A stretch of 64,000 bases of DNA from an uncultured archaeon (GTDB taxonomy: Archaea > Asgardarchaeota > Lokiarchaeia > Sigyniarchaeales > SOKP01), in contig CAZWEM010000008.1 in assembly GCA_964632315.1 (NCBI GenBank), positions 32,001-96,000 on the forward strand, given 5' to 3'. Shown piece by piece: positions 9,473-57,606 of this stretch (position 1 is its first letter; each line of letters starts with the position of its first letter). The notes under the pieces are model-generated. The model worked only from the letters and a program-made list of their open reading frames with translations, ran no database searches and was not told the DNA's origin. The position numbers and the translations under genes are program-made.

Positions 9473-11102
9473 ATTTGCATGTGATACTTCAGTAATTTTT
9501 AATGGTTTGATTATTGATTTGATAGAAGATGGCGAGCTAGGGGAAAAACCTGAATTATTTGTCTCGAACATTGTGGTCGCTGAAGTAGAATATAGGACTA
9601 ATATTCAAAAAGAAATTGGATTCTTTGGGCTAAATGTATTAAAGCAGTTAAGAAAACTTGACGTTGAAGGAAAAATTACGCTTCATTTAATAGGACATCG
9701 CCCAACTCGAGAAGAAATCAAAATGGCACCTGGTGGAGAATTAGATGCATTAATAAGGAAAGGGGCAAGAGAAAATAATGCAACCTTAATTACAGCAGAT
9801 AGAATACAAGGAGATGTGGGGATTTTTGAAGGGTTAAATGTGATGCCTGTAAAAGAAAAACGCACCCCATCTCAAAAGGAGGTAAGAAGCTTAAGGTTAT
9901 TTAAATATTTTGATGAACATACAATGAGCATTCATTTAAAGCAGGATCTTCCTGTTTATGCTAAAAAAGGAAGTCCGGGTAATTGGTACATGGAACAGGT
10001 TGGGTATGAAGTTATAGACAAAAAATTAATAGAAGATCTTGCTATTGAAATTGTTGAATATGTTAGAGAAGATCCAAAATCATTTTTAGAGATTGAAAAA
10101 TTTGGAGCCGTCGTGGCGCAATTAAGAGAATTTAGAATCGTAATTACACGTCCTCCGTTCTCTAATGATATCGAAATCACTGCCGTTCGTCCTTTAGTAA
10201 GTTTAACCCTTGATGATTACTCAATTGATAAAAGGCTCAAGAACCGCTTGAATAAAGCAGAAGGGATCTTAGTTTCTGGTTCTCCAGGCGCAGGAAAGAG
10301 TACTTTCTCAGCTGCTTTAGCTAATTATTATTCAGGTCAGGATAAAGTAGTTAAAACTCTAGAAAGCGTGAGAGATCTCCAAGTAAATCCTAATATAACT
10401 CAATATACAAAATTAGAAGGGAGCCTTGAAAATTCTGCAGATATTTTATTGCTAGTACGCCCAGATTTTACAATTTTTGATGAAGTGAGAACATCTAAGG
10501 ATTTTCAAATTTTTGCTGATTTTCGACTTTCTGGAGTCGGCATGGTAGGTGTTGTTCATTCAGCTTCCGCAATTGATGCAATTCAGCGATTTATTGGCAG
10601 GATAGAATTAGGAATGCTCCCATCCATAATAGATACAATTATATTTATCGAAGCAGGAGACATTTCAAAAGTATTAGCAATTAAAATGACAGTAAAAGTT
10701 CCCTCTGGATTTCGTGACAAGGATTTAGCCAGACCCGTAGTTGAAGTTCGTGATTATTTAACAAAAGCATTAGAATATGAGATGTATTCATTTGGGCAAG
10801 ATATAGTTGTAAATCCTATAAATCCCTCACGATCTAAGAGGAGACACATATTAAATTATGATGATACAGATAGAAACAAAAAAATTCATCTTGACGTCAA
10901 CATTTTCAGGCAAAAAGTTCGGATAAGTGCTGATCCAGAGTACGCAAGTCAAAATATAATAATCTATGCAAATGATCAAGCGATTTTCTCGGGTTCTTTG
11001 AGTAGGAATGCTGATATGTCACTTTCCCTTTCCAGTAAAGATGGAAGGAAAATCGCAAAAGAGTATAATAAATATAAGGATATTTATGGTAAGCTTAAGT
11101 AG
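9462..11102 (+). CDS. PIN-domain ATPase (PINA family)
   Basis: N-terminal PIN (DTSVI, AEVE, LITAD); Walker A GSPGAGKST; LLLVRPDFTIFDEVR; GVGMVGVVH. Confidence 0.92.
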   Translation: MPDKFACDTSVIFNGLIIDLIEDGELGEKPELFVSNIVVAEVEYRTNIQKEIGFFGLNVLKQLRKLDVEGKITLHLIGHRPTREEIKMAPGGELDALIRKGARENNATLITADRIQGDVGIFEGLNVMPVKEKRTPSQKEVRSLRLFKYFDEHTMSIHLKQDLPVYAKKGSPGNWYMEQVGYEVIDKKLIEDLAIEIVEYVREDPKSFLEIEKFGAVVAQLREFRIVITRPPFSNDIEITAVRPLVSLTLDDYSIDKRLKNRLNKAEGILVSGSPGAGKSTFSAALANYYSGQDKVVKTLESVRDLQVNPNITQYTKLEGSLENSADILLLVRPDFTIFDEVRTSKDFQIFADFRLSGVGMVGVVHSASAIDAIQRFIGRIELGMLPSIIDTIIFIEAGDISKVLAIKMTVKVPSGFRDKDLARPVVEVRDYLTKALEYEMYSFGQDIVVNPINPSRSKRRHILNYDDTDRNKKIHLDVNIFRQKVRISADPEYASQNIIIYANDQAIFSGSLSRNADMSLSLSSKDGRKIAKEYNKYKDIYGKLK

Positions 11103-11151
11103 TAATTCAACTTCCACTTAATTAAATTTTTAAAGATTTTCAACATTTCGT

Positions 11152-11913
11152 TTACTGCGACTGATTTTTATTTAAATCTTTTACTCGTTCAATAATTGGA
11201 GGAAAAACATCACTTATAAGTTCAAAAAACCTAAGATCCGCTAAATCATCATATGGAGTTTCACCCTTATTCAAAATTATCAGCTTTGCTCCATTTTTTT
11301 TAGCATATCCTGGCATATTTGCTGCTGGAGATACTACTAATGATGAACCAATGACGAAAAATACATCTGATTGTTCCGATCTCCGAATCGCTTCTTCTAA
11401 TTCTCCCAAGGGTAAGGGATCTCCAAAGTTAACAATGCTTGATATCACTCTTCCTCCGCAACGAGGGCAACTAGGCTGGCCATTTTTTACTTTACCCGTT
11501 CGATATCCCTTTCCCCATTGTTTTTTGTCCCAACCTACTTCCTCAAATGTCATTTTTGCATTGCAGCTCAGGCATTTTAGGAAATAAAGATTGCCATGTA
11601 ATTCTGACATTAACTTAAATGGAATACCGGCCTTAGCATGAAGTCCATCCACATTTTGGGAAATTAAATAATCAAGTTTTCCCATTTCTAATAACTCTAC
11701 TATAAGATAATGTGCTTGATTTGGTTTAACTTGATCCCAGGAAGGCGATTTTGGTGGGGGCAAGCCGGCATCTCTTCTCGTCCAGACTCCATCAGGACCG
11801 CGGAAATCTGGAAGTCCGCTATCCGTCGATATTCCCGCACCAGTAAAAACAACTAGTTTTTTAGATTCATAGATCCATTGAGCAGCGAGATCGATTTTTT
11901 CTTCTAATTCCAT
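11152..11913 (-). CDS. NAD-dependent protein deacylase, Sir2 family
   Basis: GAGISTDSGLPDFRG, SQNVDGLH, HGN, two CxxC, GSSLVVSPA. Confidence 0.95.
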   Translation of the reverse strand: MELEEKIDLAAQWIYESKKLVVFTGAGISTDSGLPDFRGPDGVWTRRDAGLPPPKSPSWDQVKPNQAHYLIVELLEMGKLDYLISQNVDGLHAKAGIPFKLMSELHGNLYFLKCLSCNAKMTFEEVGWDKKQWGKGYRTGKVKNGQPSCPRCGGRVISSIVNFGDPLPLGELEEAIRRSEQSDVFFVIGSSLVVSPAANMPGYAKKNGAKLIILNKGETPYDDLADLRFFELISDVFPPIIERVKDLNKNQSQ

Positions 11914-12069
11914 AATATCATTTAGTGATTAGTCTTTTAAAAAGTAAGATGTGGCATAAATATTGATGCTTGCCACCTCCTAACTAAGTCAAAATACGAC
12001 CATTCTGAAGTTTTAATAATCTTAAAAATATGTAATCTATATATTTTCGACTTCAATTATGGTATTATA

Positions 12070-12357
12070 TTAATAATCCCCTTGCTTCCCTAATTTAGAG
12101 AAAAATAATAGTTTTAGTAAATTTACATAATGATCACTAATCGAATATTCCGGAATATTAGTTGCATCTGAAATTAGTTTCTGTGTAAGAATTGCTTTCT
12201 GATAATTTTCTTGAGCGAGTAACTTATCAGCTAAATAAATAACAGCACCAGTCAAAATTAACAGATTTCTTCCCTCTCTATGCCATCGGGTTAATTTAGC
12301 TAAAATTTGTCTTGATTTTTGAGTTAATCTACTCTGAAATTCTTCTTTTGTCCACAA
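12070..12357 (-). pseudogene. Truncated TFB/TFIIB-like fragment (C-terminal cyclin repeat only)
   Basis: GRNLLILTGAVIYLA...LTQKLISDATNIPEYSISDHY resembles TFB repeat 2 (GkxPxxlAAAalY...TQxeiA.....TIRxxY); in-frame TAA two codons upstream of the TTG start. Confidence 0.65.
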
Positions 12358-12553
12358 TTCTTACATTTTTTCATTTTCTTTATCTTTTGATTTATACACT
12401 CCTATAGTATATTAGAGGGTCAACGAATTTATATAAACAACTGGTATTGAAATCATAAATTTATATTACAATGCGATCATATATGAAATTCTCTTCTATA
12501 TCGCTTTCATACCGGGATGTAGATGTTTACTCACATCTTAAGTCCACTTTAAG

Positions 12554-13294
12554 CTAAATAGGTTTTAATTTCTTGTCTAATTCTGCTAATAATGTTAATA
12601 AGTTATCGAGGAGATCATAATTCTTTATTGCCATAAAGGGATCTTCGATGTCTCCAACATTAGATAAAGTATGAGAGTCACATCCAATTGAAACGGCAAT
12701 CATCCTTTCTTTTATCTTTTGGAAGAATTGCGTGTATTTTGTGGAATAATATTGAGAATAACTGGAATTGAATTCGAGAAAGATGTTAAATTCGGCTATG
12801 AACGAAAAAAGGACTTCCATATCATTAAAAATAAAGAAAGACGGATCAAAATGTGCCAATCCCAATATGGGTATTTGAGTCTCATTATAAGATACTTTCC
12901 AATTGGTTATGATATTTTTCGAAAATGAGATAGCTTCTGGACTTTCGAGGTATTCAAAGAGGATGAGATCAAAATCATTTGGTTTAATTAAACTTGAAAT
13001 ATAATTGTGGGAACTACTTAAATCAATTTCTATTCCTTTTAATACTACTAGTTTCTGCTTATTTTCTCTCAGTTGATTATTAATGATTTCAATTTCCTCC
13101 AGGTAATTTTCGATTTTTTCACGATTATTTAATGTGGGGATGATATTGGATTTCCAAGAGTTTGAGAAATGATCTGTAATTGCGATATATTCTAAGTTCG
13201 CATTTAAAGCACTTTTTACGATTTCTTCAATGGAATTCTTTCCATCTGAATATTTGGTATGGATGTGAAGGTTTATTCTTCTACTTATTTTCAC
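12554..13294 (-). CDS. PHP domain protein
   Basis: NLHIHTKYSDG, AITDH, GIE, LAH, GCDSH. Confidence 0.9.
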   Translation of the reverse strand: MKISRRINLHIHTKYSDGKNSIEEIVKSALNANLEYIAITDHFSNSWKSNIIPTLNNREKIENYLEEIEIINNQLRENKQKLVVLKGIEIDLSSSHNYISSLIKPNDFDLILFEYLESPEAISFSKNIITNWKVSYNETQIPILGLAHFDPSFFIFNDMEVLFSFIAEFNIFLEFNSSYSQYYSTKYTQFFQKIKERMIAVSIGCDSHTLSNVGDIEDPFMAIKNYDLLDNLLTLLAELDKKLKPI

Positions 13295-13297
13295 TGA

Positions 13298-15154
13298 TCA
13301 TATACCAATTGACTTTAATTCTCTATTTGTAATCCAGAGTAAAGTTCCAGATAAGACAAGAACAATCCCAAGTATTATCATTATGGAAGAATAAATATAA
13401 TTGATGGTGTTAGGGAGAATGACAGTTGAATTAATGATGACTTCACCTATGCTTAACTCATTATCAATGTTGAGATACCCAATCCAAAGTAAGATGATTG
13501 CTGAAGTTATTTGTATCAAGGATAAAAAATAATTCATATAATGTATAAATTTTGCCCTCTTTTTTCCCAACTCGATAATTTGACCCGTTCCGATGCTAAT
13601 TACAACTTTTTCTTTATCAATTTTCTTTACAAAAAAATACACTAACTCCCGTAAAGGAATTATGTCAAAAATCGCAGTTGCAAAGGTAATTACCGTGATA
13701 ACTGTTAGAATTCGATTAATAATGACTAAGGTAATATTAACTTCAGTTAAATTATTGATCAACCAGATAAAAAAGCTCATTATCAATGCAAGGAAAGTTT
13801 TGATTCCTGCTAAAGTTAAGGATTTCGAAGCTCGATCACTAATTGAAATTAAGAAATATCCAATCCCTATTGATAAAATGATTAATCCAAGTAAGACTGC
13901 TTGAGGAGAAAAGAAAAATAATGCAAGCACTACAAAACTTCCACTCAAGATAAAGGGGAGGATGGGAAAAAATGGGGCTTTAAATGGGCGATCTAACTCT
14001 TTTCGTGTTCTTCTCAGCTTCACAGCAGCATAATTAATAAAAGCAAGGCCAAAGAAATATATAAACGTGGTTGTTTCTGCAGCCAATCCAATGCTAGCAA
14101 AATAAGTGAAGACAACTGAGATTAATGTTGTTAGTGATAATGCAAGTACCGGCATTTGCGTTGTTTTTTTTATTTTTTGGATTGTCTCAGGTATATAGCG
14201 GTCTCTAGCTAAAGCTGTTATTACACTTACACCTGAACCCAAACCAGCGTTTATTGCAATCATAGTTGAAATAAAAGCTGCTGCTGCCATTAAATAAAAA
14301 CCAAAAGGTCCTAAAATGTTTCCTAGAACGTCAGCTAATAAGACTGGGGTTTCACCTATATGTGGTGGCGGATTACCGATATTAACCAACACCACGAATG
14401 TTATAGATAAATAAATTATCAATGATATCGTGATCGCGAGGATATTGATTCTTGGTATATTTCTTGAAGGATTTTTAACTTCTGAATTTAAGTATGATAA
14501 ATTTGAGATGATTGGAGTGAATAAAATAAAGAGCAATGGTAAGGCACTTATCACGGGAATTATTTGTATGGGTCGTAAAAGAACTGAATAATCAACTGAT
14601 GCAGTTATTGGTGCTATAAGCAATCCAGAAAAAACAAATATCCCAAATAAAATTATTAAAACAACTGTGAATAATATCAAGACTCTGATAGCAATTTTTT
14701 GAGTTCGGAAAAATACTAGACTCGTGAAGAGAATAGCTATGATTGCGATAGATACCATAATAAAAGGATTTATATTTACTCCAAATAGATTAAATATTTC
14801 CCCAAAAACTGCTGAGAAAGTAAGGGCTGAAAAGGAACACGCAGAGATATTTCCAATCCAGAGAAAAAATCCGATTATAAATGCTAAAAAACCCCCTAAT
14901 CCTTCTTTACTAAAATTATACGCTCCTCCAGCAAGTGGTAGACTAGTAGACAATTCTGCATAATTTAGTGCGGTAAAAAATATTAAAACACCACCGAATA
15001 AGAGACTAAATAACACTCCTGAATCTGCAATGTCAATACCCGTGCCTAAAAGTACGAAGATCGATCCCCCAATTCCACAACCAACTCCGTATAAAATAGC
15101 TTGGGAGAGGGAAAGAGATCTTTGTTTCACTTTATGTTCTTTAGTCTCATTCAA
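13298..15154 (-). CDS. APC-family amino acid permease with extra C-terminal TM segments
   Basis: GCGIGGSIF, YAELST..P.AGGAY, EVKNPSRNIP, RPFKAP. Confidence 0.9.
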   Translation of the reverse strand: MNETKEHKVKQRSLSLSQAILYGVGCGIGGSIFVLLGTGIDIADSGVLFSLLFGGVLIFFTALNYAELSTSLPLAGGAYNFSKEGLGGFLAFIIGFFLWIGNISACSFSALTFSAVFGEIFNLFGVNINPFIMVSIAIIAILFTSLVFFRTQKIAIRVLILFTVVLIILFGIFVFSGLLIAPITASVDYSVLLRPIQIIPVISALPLLFILFTPIISNLSYLNSEVKNPSRNIPRINILAITISLIIYLSITFVVLVNIGNPPPHIGETPVLLADVLGNILGPFGFYLMAAAAFISTMIAINAGLGSGVSVITALARDRYIPETIQKIKKTTQMPVLALSLTTLISVVFTYFASIGLAAETTTFIYFFGLAFINYAAVKLRRTRKELDRPFKAPFFPILPFILSGSFVVLALFFFSPQAVLLGLIILSIGIGYFLISISDRASKSLTLAGIKTFLALIMSFFIWLINNLTEVNITLVIINRILTVITVITFATAIFDIIPLRELVYFFVKKIDKEKVVISIGTGQIIELGKKRAKFIHYMNYFLSLIQITSAIILLWIGYLNIDNELSIGEVIINSTVILPNTINYIYSSIMIILGIVLVLSGTLLWITNRELKSIGI

Positions 15155-44206: not shown

Positions 44207-45733
44207 TTAGAAAATTTCGCTAATATCTTTATAGAGATGGTCACTATTTGACAAAAACTCTTCATGGGTTACAAACAGTCTTAAGAATGATGGGAGGCTG
44301 CCAAGTATTGCTGCTCCACTAAAAATTGCAAATTGAAGATTATCTGGGATATAATACTTGATTAATCCTTCTGTAGATTTATAATAACCCGAAAATTCCT
44401 TAGCTGGAGCTATTTTTTTGATTTCTTGTTTTTGAACTTCCGGTGCTTCAAATGATTCTAAGCTTGAACCACAATATGGACAGAAAATTGACGATGTATC
44501 TGTTACCTCTTTCTTACAAGAAGGACAAATTAATTTCCCATCTACCATTATAGATTCAGCAGGATTTTCTCCAAATTCTATGGAAAGCTCTGGTAAGGAT
44601 AGTCTTCCTCCACATGAAGGACAAAATTCCTTACCATCTGATAAATCAACCATTTCACCACATTGGGGGCAAGTATCTCTTGTTTTTTTGCTTCCTTTTA
44701 CTGGTTTCATCTTTGAGGAAATAGATTCTTCATTATTTGTGACTTTTGGTTTTGGGATTTTACCTAATTCTGGAAGGAGTTTATTCAATTCTAAGGTTAA
44801 TCGTTCATCAAAACCAGAATAAGAGAGATTACCACCTGATATAATAACATGTGTTAATAAATCTGACCAATAATGGTTATCAATTCCTTGTAAGCTTGCA
44901 ATTATTGCTTGAGGAACGCTATTTATAGGGTACCCTAATAATTGTGGCTGAAACATAACTTCTGGGGCTTCAGAGAAAATATAGTGAGGAATTTGTATCG
45001 TAGATCCATCTGGCATTGAAAGTTTAAAACTATCGCTCATATCATGATCTTTTGAGGGATCAAGAACAAAATAACAGTTCTTTTCCTTGATATCTCTAAT
45101 TATTTCATCTACAGCAGAAGACTCAATTGATATCCCTTCTCGCATGAGTAAATTTTTTAGATACTGGTTAACATCTGTGCCGGCTAACGTTAACTTCTGG
45201 ACTGCTTGGTCAATTATTTGACCGTTTACAATTGGACAAATCCATGTCATCCCGTCACCACTTTCAATAACTAAACCAGTAGTCAATCCCACACTAAACA
45301 TAGAAAGTATTGGAGTAGGAACCATAATTAAACTTTTTACTCTATGAGTTTCATAAAGAACACGTGCAATATACTCTTTTGTCTCTCTGGGAACGAAAGG
45401 ATACTCAGTATAAAATACGGGATAATCAGAAAGATTTTCTACCCTTAATAACGAGTAAAAAATATAGTTTAGTATTTCATAAAAGTCATTCCAATCTAAA
45501 ATCGCTCCTCTTTCAATGGGATGTTTTACTTTTAAAACTCCACGCATTTTCATTGCATCGTTGCCCACATATATGTTTCTTGCACCCACATCAACCATAA
45601 CGGCCTTGTATTTTTCAGTACCCGTGATAGTGGGAAATACAAATCTTGGGGTGGGCTCTCCAGCGAATCCAACCTTGCAATAAGCCGATCCTATGTCAAT
45701 AATAATGGGGGTTCCTGGTAACGGGATAACCAT
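44207..45733 (-). CDS. Actin-family (Arp-like) protein with double zinc-ribbon insertion
   Basis: IIDIGSAYCKVGFAGE..PRFVFP, HPIERG..DW, TTGLVIESGDG, AGTDV, IKEKNCY, PDG, SGGN, GAAILGSL. Confidence 0.95.
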   Translation of the reverse strand: MVIPLPGTPIIIDIGSAYCKVGFAGEPTPRFVFPTITGTEKYKAVMVDVGARNIYVGNDAMKMRGVLKVKHPIERGAILDWNDFYEILNYIFYSLLRVENLSDYPVFYTEYPFVPRETKEYIARVLYETHRVKSLIMVPTPILSMFSVGLTTGLVIESGDGMTWICPIVNGQIIDQAVQKLTLAGTDVNQYLKNLLMREGISIESSAVDEIIRDIKEKNCYFVLDPSKDHDMSDSFKLSMPDGSTIQIPHYIFSEAPEVMFQPQLLGYPINSVPQAIIASLQGIDNHYWSDLLTHVIISGGNLSYSGFDERLTLELNKLLPELGKIPKPKVTNNEESISSKMKPVKGSKKTRDTCPQCGEMVDLSDGKEFCPSCGGRLSLPELSIEFGENPAESIMVDGKLICPSCKKEVTDTSSIFCPYCGSSLESFEAPEVQKQEIKKIAPAKEFSGYYKSTEGLIKYYIPDNLQFAIFSGAAILGSLPSFLRLFVTHEEFLSNSDHLYKDISEIF

Positions 45734-49583: not shown

Positions 49584-50348
49584 TTGATTATATTTAAGTT
49601 TCAGTTCATATTTTTAAATATAAATATGTCTAAACCTCCAATTCTATTATTCGATTTTGATGGAGTCGTTATAACTCAAAAAGCTCTTGAATATGCCGCA
49701 TTAATTCATTCCCGCAAGGGATTTTATAGTTGGAGGAATCTTGATGACTTAAGACTTATTGATTTTGCTCGACTTTTTGAGGAATCTGATTCAAAAAATA
49801 GACTGAAAGCAATTTTTCAAGCATTTAAATCTTATGCTTCTTATATTCCAAGTAGATGGAAAAGAATTATATTTTTTGTAAAGTTTCGACGTTTCTATCC
49901 AAGATATGAGCAATATGAAACAATTGATCCAAATTTAGAGAAAATTTTACCTATATTAAAATCTGCTAAAATTCCGCTTGGAATCGTATCAAACACCACT
50001 AAAAAAAGGCTCACGGATTTTAAAGATAAGTTAAATTTAGAAGATTTTTTTTCCGTATTTATCTCAAGAGACGATTCAAAATATCGAAAACCTAATCCAT
50101 ATCCTATATTTCTCGCATTAAATAAATTAAAAAAAGAAAATCATGTTAAAATAATGAAAGATCAGATTTACTTTATAGGTGATCTGCCTAGTGATATTCA
50201 AACGGCTAAAAATGCTAACATTAATAGTATTGCCGTTCTTTCAGGTCACGGAAGAAGAAAAGACCTTGAAAATACCGAACCAACTTTTATCTTAAAAAAC
50301 TTATCCAATTTGTTAGACCTTGACCCGATCAAAAAATTCTTATTATAA
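49584..50348 (+). CDS. HAD-family hydrolase
   Basis: FDFDGV, VSN, KPNP, IGDLPSDI. Confidence 0.92.
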   Translation: MIIFKFQFIFLNINMSKPPILLFDFDGVVITQKALEYAALIHSRKGFYSWRNLDDLRLIDFARLFEESDSKNRLKAIFQAFKSYASYIPSRWKRIIFFVKFRRFYPRYEQYETIDPNLEKILPILKSAKIPLGIVSNTTKKRLTDFKDKLNLEDFFSVFISRDDSKYRKPNPYPIFLALNKLKKENHVKIMKDQIYFIGDLPSDIQTAKNANINSIAVLSGHGRRKDLENTEPTFILKNLSNLLDLDPIKKFLL

Positions 50349-50370: not shown

Positions 50371-53100
50371 ATGATTAATCTAGATGATTTCGAGAAATTT
50401 GGCGCCATAAAACCTATAATTGAAAAAATAAACAAATACTATGCTAAAAACAAGAAAGATAAAATCCTTAAACTATTAGGAGATTTATCTGAACTAATGG
50501 ATCAAGAGGAAAATTTAATCCCCATTACTTATATCTTTAGTCTCATTGCTGAAAAAGATGTGGAATTAATTCCTGACAACATTTTTTCCACATTAGGAGA
50601 TTTATTAGAAGGAGACGATAATAAAGCAAAATTAAATTCTATTAGTGTATTAGGTTTCAGAATGTTAAAGAGACCTGAATCTGAGGATGATTATTTAATT
50701 CAATTTATCAATCTTTTGAACGATGATGATAAGGATGTTAGAGAAAATATCTATTACTTTCTACAAAATTTAAAAGACTTTAAAGCTCGTTCACTCTGCA
50801 GATTTAAAGTACAATTTATAGAGGCAATTCAAAATGAAGATGTCGATGATAATATCTTATCCATCATAAATATTTTAATTCAGTGCTCTAATTTTTCGTT
50901 TCAAGAATTATTAACTTTAAGAATGGTTATTAAGGAATTATATAGTCGTTATTTTAACAAGAGCGAAACGATGATATCATCATTAGACTTTCTAACCGAA
51001 GTATGTTATGCAAATTTAAATTTAACAGAAGAATTCAAGACTCAGGATCTTAAGCATAAACTAAAATCTCTTGACAACCTTTTCTTAATGAAAAAGGAAA
51101 CTTATCCCCTTTCTGAGAGTAATAAAGTGAAGAAAAAAAGAAAGAGGATTAAACAATTAAAACTTGAGGATCAAGTTGTTTATTTCTACGTAAAAATTGC
51201 TGAGGAAAAAGCATATTATTTCTATGAATTTGAAAAGAGTAAGCTCACTTCAATATTTTCGCAAGCGCGTTTATCTAGCGAGGATTTAAGTAAAATTTTC
51301 GATCCGATAGTAGATGATAACCGAGAAATACAAGTAATAATCAATACACTCTTAAGGTTCAATCATATCGAGGGATATTATTCTGATTTAGGATTTTTTT
51401 ATCCCTTAGAATTTATCACTAGTGAATTTCAGAGAAAAATCCAAGAGAATGGTATGATAAATTTAAAAAAATATGATTATTTCCCAATTAATTTTATCGA
51501 AAAGGTAATTAAAGATATCTCAAATAGCTCCAAAGAGGTGTTATTAAAAGGAAAAAACGAAACTGCGTATTATTCCTTAAAAAGGATCGTTGAACAAATT
51601 AATAAAGAAGCAGCAAAAAGCAGTTCTATTGATTTACAAACATATAAAGAGAGATTACCGAGTGAAGAATATCATAAATTAGTCAAAAATCTTCCTAAGG
51701 AATATTTAACAGAATATCATAAAGACACCCATTGGATTACAAATTTAGGGTTATTAAAAATTAACCAAGAAATTGAAAACTCTAAAATATTAGGTTATCT
51801 CTCTATTCCAAATGTAGCTGAGAAATACCACATATCAAAAACGATTTTGGAGGAAGTAATAGAAAATTTAATTGATTTCAGGAGTGGTGTATTTGACATG
51901 AATAAGAATGTTTTTTATTATTCACGATTTCTTAAAGATGAAATAGATAAGATAAATTTGATTAAAAATGTTGAGATAAAAGCAAAACGTATTAATCAGC
52001 TAGCTCAAAAACTCAATATCAAGAAAGAAAAGATCTTATCAAAAATAGATGAAAATCTTAGGTTACTTGGAGAAGAAATTAAACAAAAAGATCAAATTAA
52101 TATTCCTTCCTATTTAGAAAAGACTGGAATGAATTTCAAGGCCTTTGTAAACTTCATAAAAGACTTAGATATTTCATATTTTAAGAAAGGAGATACTCTT
52201 GTATTGGATGAAAAAAAGGTTAATGAAGCAAAAGTGGAATTAAAAGAAATTTTAGTTCAAGAAACACAATCAAGAAACTCTTTTCTTTTAACAGAATTCG
52301 ACATTAGTACTAAAATAGTAAAAGATTTGTTAGCAGAATTAATTCAAGAGGACAAAATTAAAGGTATTTTTTACAATGATCAAGGAGAATTACGTTTTTA
52401 TAGCGAAAAGGGAATCATAAATATGATGATGGAGGAAAGTTTTCTTTTCACTTTGACTGACTTTTTTCCGGATAAAGAGCTCTTTGAAGAAGAACTCAAT
52501 CTAATGAAATCTACAGTAAAAGAATTAATGAATTCTAAAAAGTTGAACGGAACATTCGATCCAGATTCATTAACTTTTTCCAGTAATGATGTTGTATTCG
52601 CTCAGAATTATAATACAGTTTTAAGCGAATTTGAAAAGACAGTCATTAATTATAACTCGATAATGCTGAATGAATTCAATAAAGTCAAAACTATTTTAAC
52701 AAAGAAAGAACAAACTATTTTTCCTCAAGAAATTAAATTAATTCAGGACACGATTAATCGCATGAATGAGAAATCAATTAAATGGAGGCACGAATTAGAT
52801 GCATTCATTAGGAGAGCAAATACAGAATTATTGAAGAAACAAGGATACTCTATTAGAAGGTATAAAGAAGCAAATTCCATATTAGAATCAAAAGATAACA
52901 TTAAGTTTTTTGAAGATGATACTAGCGTTAAAGAATTGATGGCTCAATTCAATAAGTGGATAAAATTATTCAATAATATTGAGTTAAAATATGGCAATGT
53001 CATATTTTATCAAAAACGTGTTATAAATGACCCCTCTAATCAATCTAATAAAGAAAGGTTAAACCTTTTATTGGCTGAATTAAATATGGATAGAGAATAG
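50371..53100 (+). CDS. Large HEAT-repeat + tandem winged-helix (PCI/UFL1-like) protein
   Basis: HEAT-like LLNDDDKDVRENI; repeated LI...I.G.(F/Y)....F(Y/S) winged-helix units; coiled-coil tail. Confidence 0.6.
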   Translation: MINLDDFEKFGAIKPIIEKINKYYAKNKKDKILKLLGDLSELMDQEENLIPITYIFSLIAEKDVELIPDNIFSTLGDLLEGDDNKAKLNSISVLGFRMLKRPESEDDYLIQFINLLNDDDKDVRENIYYFLQNLKDFKARSLCRFKVQFIEAIQNEDVDDNILSIINILIQCSNFSFQELLTLRMVIKELYSRYFNKSETMISSLDFLTEVCYANLNLTEEFKTQDLKHKLKSLDNLFLMKKETYPLSESNKVKKKRKRIKQLKLEDQVVYFYVKIAEEKAYYFYEFEKSKLTSIFSQARLSSEDLSKIFDPIVDDNREIQVIINTLLRFNHIEGYYSDLGFFYPLEFITSEFQRKIQENGMINLKKYDYFPINFIEKVIKDISNSSKEVLLKGKNETAYYSLKRIVEQINKEAAKSSSIDLQTYKERLPSEEYHKLVKNLPKEYLTEYHKDTHWITNLGLLKINQEIENSKILGYLSIPNVAEKYHISKTILEEVIENLIDFRSGVFDMNKNVFYYSRFLKDEIDKINLIKNVEIKAKRINQLAQKLNIKKEKILSKIDENLRLLGEEIKQKDQINIPSYLEKTGMNFKAFVNFIKDLDISYFKKGDTLVLDEKKVNEAKVELKEILVQETQSRNSFLLTEFDISTKIVKDLLAELIQEDKIKGIFYNDQGELRFYSEKGIINMMMEESFLFTLTDFFPDKELFEEELNLMKSTVKELMNSKKLNGTFDPDSLTFSSNDVVFAQNYNTVLSEFEKTVINYNSIMLNEFNKVKTILTKKEQTIFPQEIKLIQDTINRMNEKSIKWRHELDAFIRRANTELLKKQGYSIRRYKEANSILESKDNIKFFEDDTSVKELMAQFNKWIKLFNNIELKYGNVIFYQKRVINDPSNQSNKERLNLLLAELNMDRE

Positions 53101-53113
53101 TAGAATTTCGAAT

Positions 53114-53401
53114 CTAATTGTCTCGCTTTTTTAATATATCATCAATGATTTTGTCAACATCTAACTTATGATTCTGTTTAATGTTATACGTCTTAGGGTG
53201 GAATGACCCATTTATTTCTAAAATTCCTTCTTTTTCAAGACAATCAAGTGATCTCCAAATAAAATTAATTTTTGATCGATTTGAAGATTTAACATTATTA
53301 CACCTTCTTATTCGCTTAGTGTCTACCCTATAAACCTTATTATCTATAAGTTTATTTATTGCTTCTAAAGTATCTCGAAGATTTTTCAAGAAGAAGTCCA
53401 T
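53114..53401 (-). CDS. Small basic winged-helix-like protein
   Basis: 95 aa; IWRSLDCLEKEGILEING...KTYNI. Confidence 0.6.
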   Translation of the reverse strand: MDFFLKNLRDTLEAINKLIDNKVYRVDTKRIRRCNNVKSSNRSKINFIWRSLDCLEKEGILEINGSFHPKTYNIKQNHKLDVDKIIDDILKKRDN

Positions 53402-56823: not shown

Positions 56824-57606
56824 ATGGTAGATGAAGAAGTGGAAATCTCAAACGAAATTAAAAAAAGCTATGATGAAGCAATCTATGATGAAGTGAAATA
56901 TGGTATATTAATTGCTCTTGAATTTTATAAATCTTTGAATTTAAAGAAATTAGCAGAGATTTTAGATCGTCCAAAAACTACTACCTTGAGGTATCTAAAA
57001 AATCTTTTGAATGAAGGTTTGATAATATTAGATACTAATAAAACAGCAAAAGATTGGGGAAAATTTTATAAATTATCTCAAACAGTAGAATTTTTGATTG
57101 AGAGTAGGAAAAAGAAGACCCTAGAACGCGAAAAATGGATTACAGATGAATTTGAAACCATAGATGAGAAAAATGATGAAGAAGTTAAAAATTTATTAGT
57201 TAGAGCAGCAATATCGAAAGAAGATTTTCAAGTTGGTTTACAAGAAGCTAAGCAATCAATTTTTTTTATTACAAATGTGCAAAAAATGATAATTAATAAA
57301 TTAATAATAACTTGGAAAGATTTAATGAAAATCTATGAAGATAAAGGGATAGAACATCTTAAAGAAAGTCTTACTTTTTATCCCGCAGATGTTGAGATGA
57401 GGAGTACAACATTAAAACTTTATACACCTAGACAATTGATTGATTTAATTAAATTATTCAATTCATGGAATGATGATCTTGTAAAAATTAAAGAGAGATT
57501 TGAGAATGAAATGGAAAATATGAATATCCCAGAGGAACAAAGACACGAATTCTTTTTATATTCTTTTCTAGGTTCTTTAGAATTTGGAGCCAAATTTAAA
57601 GATTAA
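56824..57606 (+). CDS. Winged-helix transcriptional regulator, divergent from the MFS gene
   Basis: LNLKKLAEILDRPKTTTLRYLKNLLNEGLI...GKFYKLS. Confidence 0.8.
   Translation: MVDEEVEISNEIKKSYDEAIYDEVKYGILIALEFYKSLNLKKLAEILDRPKTTTLRYLKNLLNEGLIILDTNKTAKDWGKFYKLSQTVEFLIESRKKKTLEREKWITDEFETIDEKNDEEVKNLLVRAAISKEDFQVGLQEAKQSIFFITNVQKMIINKLIITWKDLMKIYEDKGIEHLKESLTFYPADVEMRSTTLKLYTPRQLIDLIKLFNSWNDDLVKIKERFENEMENMNIPEEQRHEFFLYSFLGSLEFGAKFKD

Follow-up and report, generated by a model that had tools for sequence, protein, structure and literature searches.

UFMylation is among the least understood of the ubiquitin-like systems, and its E3 ligase is an unusual winged-helix (WH) clamp on the 60S ribosomal subunit. 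A gene on a stretch of Asgard archaeal DNA raises the question of whether a scaffold of this kind also exists in an archaeon and, if so, whether it acts as a ligase there. The stretch, referred to here as the window, comprises 64,000 nucleotides (nt) and corresponds to positions 32001-96000 of contig C8 in assembly G000 (4.45 Mb; completeness, 99.5%; contamination, 8.6%). It is AT rich, with a GC content of ~27 to 36% in 2-kb bins, and the names carried by homologs indicate a Loki-type Asgard archaeon (Promethearchaeota). The gene, P0001 (50371..53100, + strand), is an intact open reading frame (ORF) with a stop codon and encodes 909 amino acids (aa). It fills its region as a single ORF, and no competing ORF of at least 60 aa was present inside it in any frame. 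A preliminary description, made from the sequence alone, had proposed that the product is a candidate relative of the UFL1/DDRGK1 E3 scaffold and had suggested a ubiquitin-like protein pathway. The first part of this proposal was partly supported, by structure comparison, by Pfam matches of distant orthologs, and by homology to a paralog in the same genome, whereas the second part was not, since the ligase-specific parts and the UFM1 machinery were missing. On balance, and with some reserve, we favor an explanation in which P0001 is a soluble, order-specific, noncatalytic scaffold of Asgard archaea that carries a UFL1-related WH chain and is not a UFM1 ligase.

A helical solenoid followed by a chain of winged helices

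An AlphaFold2 model of P0001 was built on a 39-sequence alignment, and a second model covered residues 236-909. Mean pLDDT reached 87.2 in the first model and 88.7 in the second; due to a pTM of ~0.5, the relative placement of the domains is uncertain. Domain boundaries were assigned by DSSP, and all of the segments described below lie on the + strand. Residues 1-236 (50371..51078) form a solenoid of stacked helical hairpin or triplet repeats of the ARM/HEAT type, in agreement with the HEAT-like repeats that had been expected ahead of the winged units. A degenerate winged-helix-like module follows (residues 237-288, 51079..51234), which displayed a strand-helix-hairpin (beta-alpha-beta-beta) order in both models. 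The winged units proper consist of helix-strand-helix-helix-hairpin, measure ~55-65 aa each, and are arranged back to back. WH1-WH4 (residues 289-345, 346-402, 403-457, and 458-517; 51235..51921) constitute the block that superposes on a DDRGK1-UFL1 chimera. The next segment (51922..52584) comprises WH5 (518-572), which has three helices and no wing and whose long third helix extends into the following unit, as well as WH6 (573-611), WH7 (612-678), and WH8 (679-738). Thus, the "roughly 6-7 units of about 60 aa" of the preliminary description correspond to seven units with a wing, alongside one that lacks it and one that is degenerate, and both peptides quoted there were recovered in the translation (KINQEIENSK...YYSRFL at residues 463-521 and LLAELIQEDK...FYSEKG at residues 653-681). 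The protein ends with a helical domain (residues 739-909, 52585..53097) made of a spectrin-like three-helix bundle and a helical hairpin, with long helices spanning residues 739-903.

The repeats were also detectable by profile-profile comparison, with probabilities of 93.9% for WH2-WH7, 81% for WH7-WH8, 79% for WH3-WH6, and 78% for WH2-WH4. Conservation within the family peaks in the wing of WH3. Its signature, NLPKxYLTxYHKGTxWLTNLG (residues 440-460, 51688..51750), was obtained from two family alignments, and T457 and G460 are invariant.

Structural similarity to UFL1 and DDRGK1

A Foldseek search of the PDB with the whole model placed UFL1 chains of ribosome complexes on top (8qfc_B with an E value of 1.9e-9, then 8ohd_A and 9gy4_E), followed by the UFL1-DDRGK1 chimera 8b9x; HEAT proteins came next at ~1e-4. 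With residues 236-909, UFL1 was matched at an E value of 2.8e-11 over ~700 alignment columns. The next classes were RPC82/RPC62 (4e-4), SelB (2e-3), STK19 (5e-3), and Vps25 together with proteasome-lid PCI proteins (3e-2), so that UFL1 led the other WH arrays by seven orders of magnitude. The comparison with UFL1, DDRGK1, PCI, and ESCRT-II proteins that had been suggested as a check therefore yielded a clear preference for UFL1 (2.8e-11 versus 4e-4 for the best other WH array), and P0001 can be described as a tandem WH array whose closest solved structure is UFL1/DDRGK1. In a structure search independent of Foldseek, the UFL1-DDRGK1 chimera was the sole multi-WH match. A shape search of the ESM Atlas returned first an Asgard family with Pfam PCI, E3_UFM1_ligase, and DDRGK domains, then two eukaryotic UFL1 clusters, and then SelB. 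Language-model features pointed to UFL1 clusters as well, at a value of 0.84 that lies below the reliability mark of the tool and serves as a lead only.

Structural alignment to 8b9x showed that the four units at residues 281-520 cover the whole chimera, i.e., the WH of DDRGK1, the composite domain, and WH1-WH2 of UFL1. In a VIA alignment to 9gy4_E, UFL1 residue 29 fell on P0001 residue 373. Rigid-body alignment of the whole model was dominated by the ARM domain, and a wide search with residues 236-909 was dominated by the helical tail.

The features shared with UFL1 and DDRGK1/UFBP1 (8qfc, 8ohd, 9gy4, 8b9x; PF09743) are an unbroken chain of PCI-type WH domains and a helical C-terminal region behind it. 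The UFL1-UFBP1 complex has seven WH domains (PMC10937380). The equal number of winged units in P0001 is suggestive, although the extra wingless and degenerate units weaken the parallel. Several differences set the proteins apart. P0001 is one polypeptide instead of two and accordingly contains no composite pWH-pWH' domain, it has a 236-residue ARM/HEAT domain in the place that a membrane anchor and a long helix take in DDRGK1, it includes the additional wingless unit and the degenerate first unit, and its tail measures 170 aa compared to 270 aa in UFL1. Other proteins with WH domains were more distant. PCI subunits of the proteasome lid, CSN, and eIF3 carry a single terminal WH that joins a six-subunit horseshoe, whereas P0001 has eight or nine consecutive WH units, and the whole-chain Foldseek matches to lid and CSN proteins were ~10^9-fold weaker than those to UFL1. 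The C-terminal WH1-WH4 of SelB, which docks on an RNA/ribosome surface, and RPC82/RPC62 are likewise tandem WH arrays and made up the next-best structural classes (E values of 4e-4 to 2e-3); however, P0001 shares with them neither a GTPase or polymerase context nor a link at the sequence level.

The combination of HEAT repeats and WH units could also suggest a DNA-associated chromatin or transcription factor, comparable to condensin HEAT subunits with kite/ScpB proteins or to arrays of the RPC82/TFIIE type. Weak Pfam Cnd1 matches on the N terminus of many relatives and the presence of RPC82/RPC62 and MukE/F among the lower structural matches point in this direction. However, these structural matches were 10^7-fold weaker than UFL1, and the Cnd1 matches, mostly below the cutoff, are typical of any HEAT repeat. 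Furthermore, the WH units are near neutral or acidic in net charge and show no basic bias (WH8, -7 per 100 aa), and thus nucleic acid binding is not indicated, while protein contacts would fit. None of the examined loci of the window's own family had SMC, kleisin, or polymerase genes nearby. Taken together, we consider such a function very improbable.

Sequence links through orthologs and an in-genome paralog

Searched alone, P0001 had no sequence match in Pfam, NCBIfam, or the PDB. Its orthologs were more informative. Three of 48 family members passed the cutoff of PF09743 (E3_UFM1_ligase; gathering score, 23.2 bits), with a best E value of 1.4e-10; one of them, P0150, reached 39.3 bits. L015, a 924-aa sister-family ortholog from genome G089, is 24% identical to P0001 over its full length (BLASTP E value of 4e-65) and scored 35.2 bits over its residues 381-568, which align with profile positions 28-214 (187 colinear positions). 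Mapped through BLASTP, this match corresponds to residues ~374-561 of P0001 (51490..52053, + strand). Genome scans with the Pfam UFL1 model matched the same place in the orthologs of genomes G213 and G089. The Pfam and structural registers agree with each other, as both place UFL1 residues 28-29 at P0001 residues 373-374. This position is the middle of a complete WH, and in eukaryotes it is where UFL1 begins with a partial WH that is completed by DDRGK1.

The outright match of G000 to the Pfam UFL1 model is not P0001 but P0122, a paralog of 799 aa on contig C59 (~10974-13373, equivalent to L001:427-2826, - strand), which passed the Pfam cutoffs for PCI, DDRGK, and UFL1. Its zinc ribbons lie at the N terminus and are followed by five WH units, by a region rich in beta structure, and by a tail that resembles Vps28 (25 bits). 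The DDRGK profile matched residues 113-226 and E3_UFM1_ligase matched residues 236-442, in addition to PCI, and this order is colinear with an unsplit DDRGK1-UFL1. The P0122 family is highly conserved (aligned members are at least 73% identical). In the WH region, comparison of the P0001 and P0122 families by hhalign gave a probability of 97.6% and an E value of 4.8e-12 over 257 colinear columns, and a HMMER profile of the P0001 family matched P0122 at 1.8e-12 along with its counterparts in many genomes. The best 120 matches listed for a search seeded with P0122 were Asgard proteins only. Judged by these profile comparisons, the WH regions of P0001 and P0122 are homologous. P0001 is a paralog and not a member of the P0122-type family of PCI/DDRGK/UFL1 proteins of ~790 aa, since only the WH region is shared. 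Both proteins continue as single chains across the position at which DDRGK1 and UFL1 are separated in eukaryotes; P0122, however, combines its five WH units with zinc ribbons, a beta-rich middle, and a Vps28-like tail, whereas in P0001 a larger number of WH units is flanked by an ARM domain and another tail. By hhalign, module 237-288 of P0001 pairs with the first WH of P0122, with weak similarity at the level of the unit, and the WH that bears the family signature has no counterpart in P0122.

Based on the structural and sequence matches, we conclude that the WH chain of P0001 is very probably homologous to the DDRGK1/UFBP1-UFL1 array of eukaryotes. A number of observations weigh against this conclusion. 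Since P0001 itself lacks a direct match (PF09743 gave none even at an E value of 10), the link to UFL1 relies on structure prediction and transitive sequence matches, and PDB profile searches with the family returned HEAT proteins only and nothing for residues 236-909. The TM-scores to UFL1 are low (0.15-0.23), as the two arrays do not superpose rigidly, 8b9x was placed one unit apart by two VIA alignments, and the C-terminal tail had only generic three-helix-bundle matches. The register is also not unique, because the WH units resemble each other: P0150 aligned Pfam positions 126-232 to WH1-WH2, and a unit-by-unit hhalign matrix against P0122 lacked a clean diagonal, so that a one-to-one correspondence of the WH units is not established. 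Consequently, part of the array could be the product of an independent expansion. Carried further, this leads to the alternative of a generic PCI-type tandem WH scaffold that has only the repeat unit in common with UFL1, whose array converged in shape through lineage duplications, and to which no function of UFL1 was carried over. The ~700 columns aligned to UFL1 at 2.8e-11, compared to 4e-4 for the best other WH array, argue against this alternative, as do the 187 colinear PF09743 positions of L015 in a register equal to the structural alignment and the 257-column colinear match to the Pfam-positive P0122. We therefore regard the generic scaffold as unlikely but worth keeping in mind.

Ligase-specific parts and ubiquitin-like machinery

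Homology of the WH chain does not by itself make P0001 a ligase, and the parts that are specific to the ligase were searched for separately. P0001 has neither the UFC1-binding N-terminal alpha-1 helix of UFL1 nor a partial WH completed in trans (PMC10937380); the array is continuous and starts behind the ARM domain, which leaves no equivalent of this helix. The C-terminal domain of UFL1 (PF23659 UFL1 and PF25041 UFL1_C) did not match P0001 in a whole-genome scan at an E value of 10. In UFL1, this domain occupies the tRNA sites of the 60S subunit. PF09756 (DDRGK) was found neither in P0001 nor in 18 relatives (9 at E values of <=1 and 9 at <=0.01) nor in the 48 family members (<=0.01), and P0122 was the sole DDRGK match in G000. 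The WH of DDRGK1 was matched in fold only, within the alignment to 8b9x, and a hydrophobic anchor is absent because the N terminus is the ARM domain.

The preliminary description had linked P0001 to a ubiquitin-like protein (Ubl) pathway by means of a "UFM1-flavoured" Ubl 50 kb away. That gene (860-1159, + strand) encodes a 99-aa protein of the ubiquitin family that ends with AGGC. It matched Pfam ubiquitin at 38.9 bits, its best PDB sequence matches were polyubiquitin, and no UFM1 chain was listed among them; it is thus ubiquitin-type. No E1 or E2 gene adjoins it, and a ThiF-type gene lies ~7 kb upstream of the start of the window (C8:24825-25523). UFC1, Peptidase_C78 (UFSP), and CDK5RAP3 had no Pfam match in the 99.5% complete G000 genome, and Ufm1 gave one subthreshold Pfam match (12.6 bits) elsewhere, on contig C54, with no structural search made for Ufm1-like folds. 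With these results, and with the lack of ligase-specific parts in P0001, the proposed pathway is not supported. Picchianti et al. (PMC10183829) described the same pattern: UFL1 and DDRGK1 were present in Asgard archaea, whereas UFM1, UFC1, UFSP2, and C53 were detected in eukaryotes only. According to that work, the Asgard origin of UFL1 and DDRGK1 preceded UFM1, and the two proteins may have had a function independent of it. G000 agrees with this picture, with UFL1-type arrays present and the UFM1 machinery undetected. A structure-based survey, on the other hand, reported Ufm1-like proteins in nine Asgard clades (PMC12962969), which counts against our explanation, as absence at the level of Pfam is then not proof of absence.

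G000 does appear to possess a ubiquitin-type conjugation pair. On contig C29 (15576-17293), a canonical ubiquitin E2 (UQ_con, 91.8 bits) adjoins an E1-like ThiF gene, unlinked to P0001, and by their sequence matches we identify the two as this pair; the genome contains further ThiF genes and ubiquitin-type Ubls. P0001 could therefore be imagined as an E3-like scaffold that brings a ubiquitin-charged E2 of the archaeon's own system to a substrate, the more so as UFL1 is described in PMC9627666 as a scaffold-type E3 without a catalytic cysteine. However, no E1, E2, or Ubl gene was located near P0001 or its orthologs in the seven loci examined, the UFC1-binding helix of UFL1 has no counterpart, and UFC1 was not found in G000. 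A role in ubiquitin conjugation is accordingly improbable.

Distribution of the family

Metagenomes contained ~200 full-length homologs of 900-915 aa with identities down to 41%, all of them unnamed or annotated as "hypothetical." Among 1.8 billion representatives, an exhaustive search with the family profile recovered more distant full-length members of 19-25% identity; outside the family, HEAT-repeat proteins were the only matches, and eukaryotic UFL1 did not appear. We then determined the distribution in a sample of 301 genomes of the phylum, including one closed 4.4-Mb genome. The full-length protein was present in all 75 sampled genomes of the window's order (68/68 and 7/7 in its two families) and in none of the 225 other sampled genomes of the phylum, where only the HEAT part gave partial matches. 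The class is represented by two other genomes in the sample, and both lacked it. The P0001 family is hence a universal, order-specific protein among the sampled genomes. The Pfam signature of P0122, in contrast, also occurs outside the order, and Pfam UFL1 matches were found in other families of the phylum. We conclude that the P0001 family is one branch, specific to its lineage, of the UFL1-type scaffolds that radiated in Asgard archaea. Its confinement to one order makes it unlikely to be the direct ancestor of UFL1. One ortholog of the same genus (G099:C12:4383-7108) carries several in-frame stops in its N-terminal third and may be a pseudogene or reflect an assembly error.

A HAD phosphatase gene upstream of the scaffold gene

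A gene for a HAD-IA phosphatase (49626..50348, + strand) ends 22 nt upstream of P0001. Its four HAD motifs are intact, its cap is specific to its subfamily, and no equivalog model matched at the cutoff. The HAD profile separated this specific subfamily cleanly (at least 259 bits) from generic HADs (at most 95 bits), and among the sampled genomes the subfamily is confined to the order of P0001. It was encoded directly upstream of and co-directional with the scaffold gene in 58 of 76 genomes and elsewhere in 3; in 2, it could not be placed because genes were cut at contig edges. The gene was not found in the other 13 of the 76 scaffold-bearing genomes, a further point against our explanation insofar as the phosphatase is part of it. 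The pairing of the HAD and scaffold genes is thus real but dispensable, and the HAD gene is a probable operon partner of P0001. Modelled as a complex with residues 1-745 of P0001, the HAD protein scored 0.00; run without controls, this prediction speaks neither for nor against binding.

The wider neighborhood differs between the two families. Loci of the window's own family are syntenic and comprise genes for a prenyltransferase, a zinc-ribbon actin, a CBS protein, a metallo-beta-lactamase, a membrane protein, the HAD, the target, a 95-aa protein, PurH, and IMPDH, and this synteny by itself says little. At sister-family loci, all neighbors differ except for the upstream same-strand HAD-IA gene, which is sometimes duplicated.

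Proposed role of the scaffold

We propose that P0001 would act as a noncatalytic adaptor and not as a UFM1 ligase. Its WH chain may lie along a large macromolecular surface while the ARM domain and the tail hold partners. The product of the private HAD gene upstream is a candidate for such a partner or for an activity under common regulation. By analogy with the winged helices of UFL1 on the free 60S subunit, the best guess for this surface would be the large ribosomal subunit. Every WH domain except one touches the ribosome in the human complex, where the contacts described involve the ribosomal proteins RPL13 and RPL10a (PMC10937380). Docking of P0001 on the large subunit, suggested by this analogy, is nevertheless a tentative idea that we hold to be somewhat doubtful. 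More speculatively, and with little expectation that it will prove correct in full, the ARM-WH scaffold and its private HAD might together be a module of this order for docking on the free large subunit or another large particle, and thereby preserve a clamp role from before UFM1, with the WH chain reading the surface of the particle and the ARM domain delivering an enzyme and not a Ubl-charged E2.

An Asgard origin of UFL1 and DDRGK1 has already been published (PMC10183829). New here are the universal distribution restricted to one order, the bridges through sister-family orthologs and through P0122, the concordance of the registers obtained from Pfam and from structure, the HAD gene as a conserved partner, and the explicit failure of tests for ligase-specific membership. 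Being universal in the sampled genomes of its order, soluble, and confidently modelled, P0001 would offer a practical handle on what such a scaffold binds where UFM1 machinery is not detectable. The presence of both P0001 and P0122 in G000 further indicates that Asgard archaea diversified the scaffold into several architectures within one genome, which calls for caution against taking any single one as the ancestor of UFL1.

Other features near the gene

Downstream of P0001, a convergent ORF of 95 aa (53114-53401, - strand) follows after a gap of 13 nt and showed a weak match to DUF7808. An ORF of 93-95 aa occupies the equivalent position in three related loci (L010-L012). It was considered as a partner and rejected, as BLAST gave no match beside the sister-family orthologs.

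Some sister-family loci carry further genes of possible interest. Two of them (L017 and L019) contain a ~400-aa gene that resembles HDAC/AcuC by eye, two tandem HAD copies, and the target ortholog, followed downstream by a conserved 510-aa protein and a ~420-aa gene that appears acetyltransferase-like by eye. At a third (L018), the gene that converges on the target encodes 193 aa and has a macro-domain-like motif. In the window itself, positions 56824-57606 (+ strand) encode a 260-aa protein with an N-terminal winged helix-turn-helix (weak HTH_24/IclR match) and an uncharacterized C-terminal part, which is absent in L010-L012. An actin-family gene with a zinc-ribbon insert (44207-45733, - strand) lies 4.6 kb upstream of P0001 and is syntenic in related loci.

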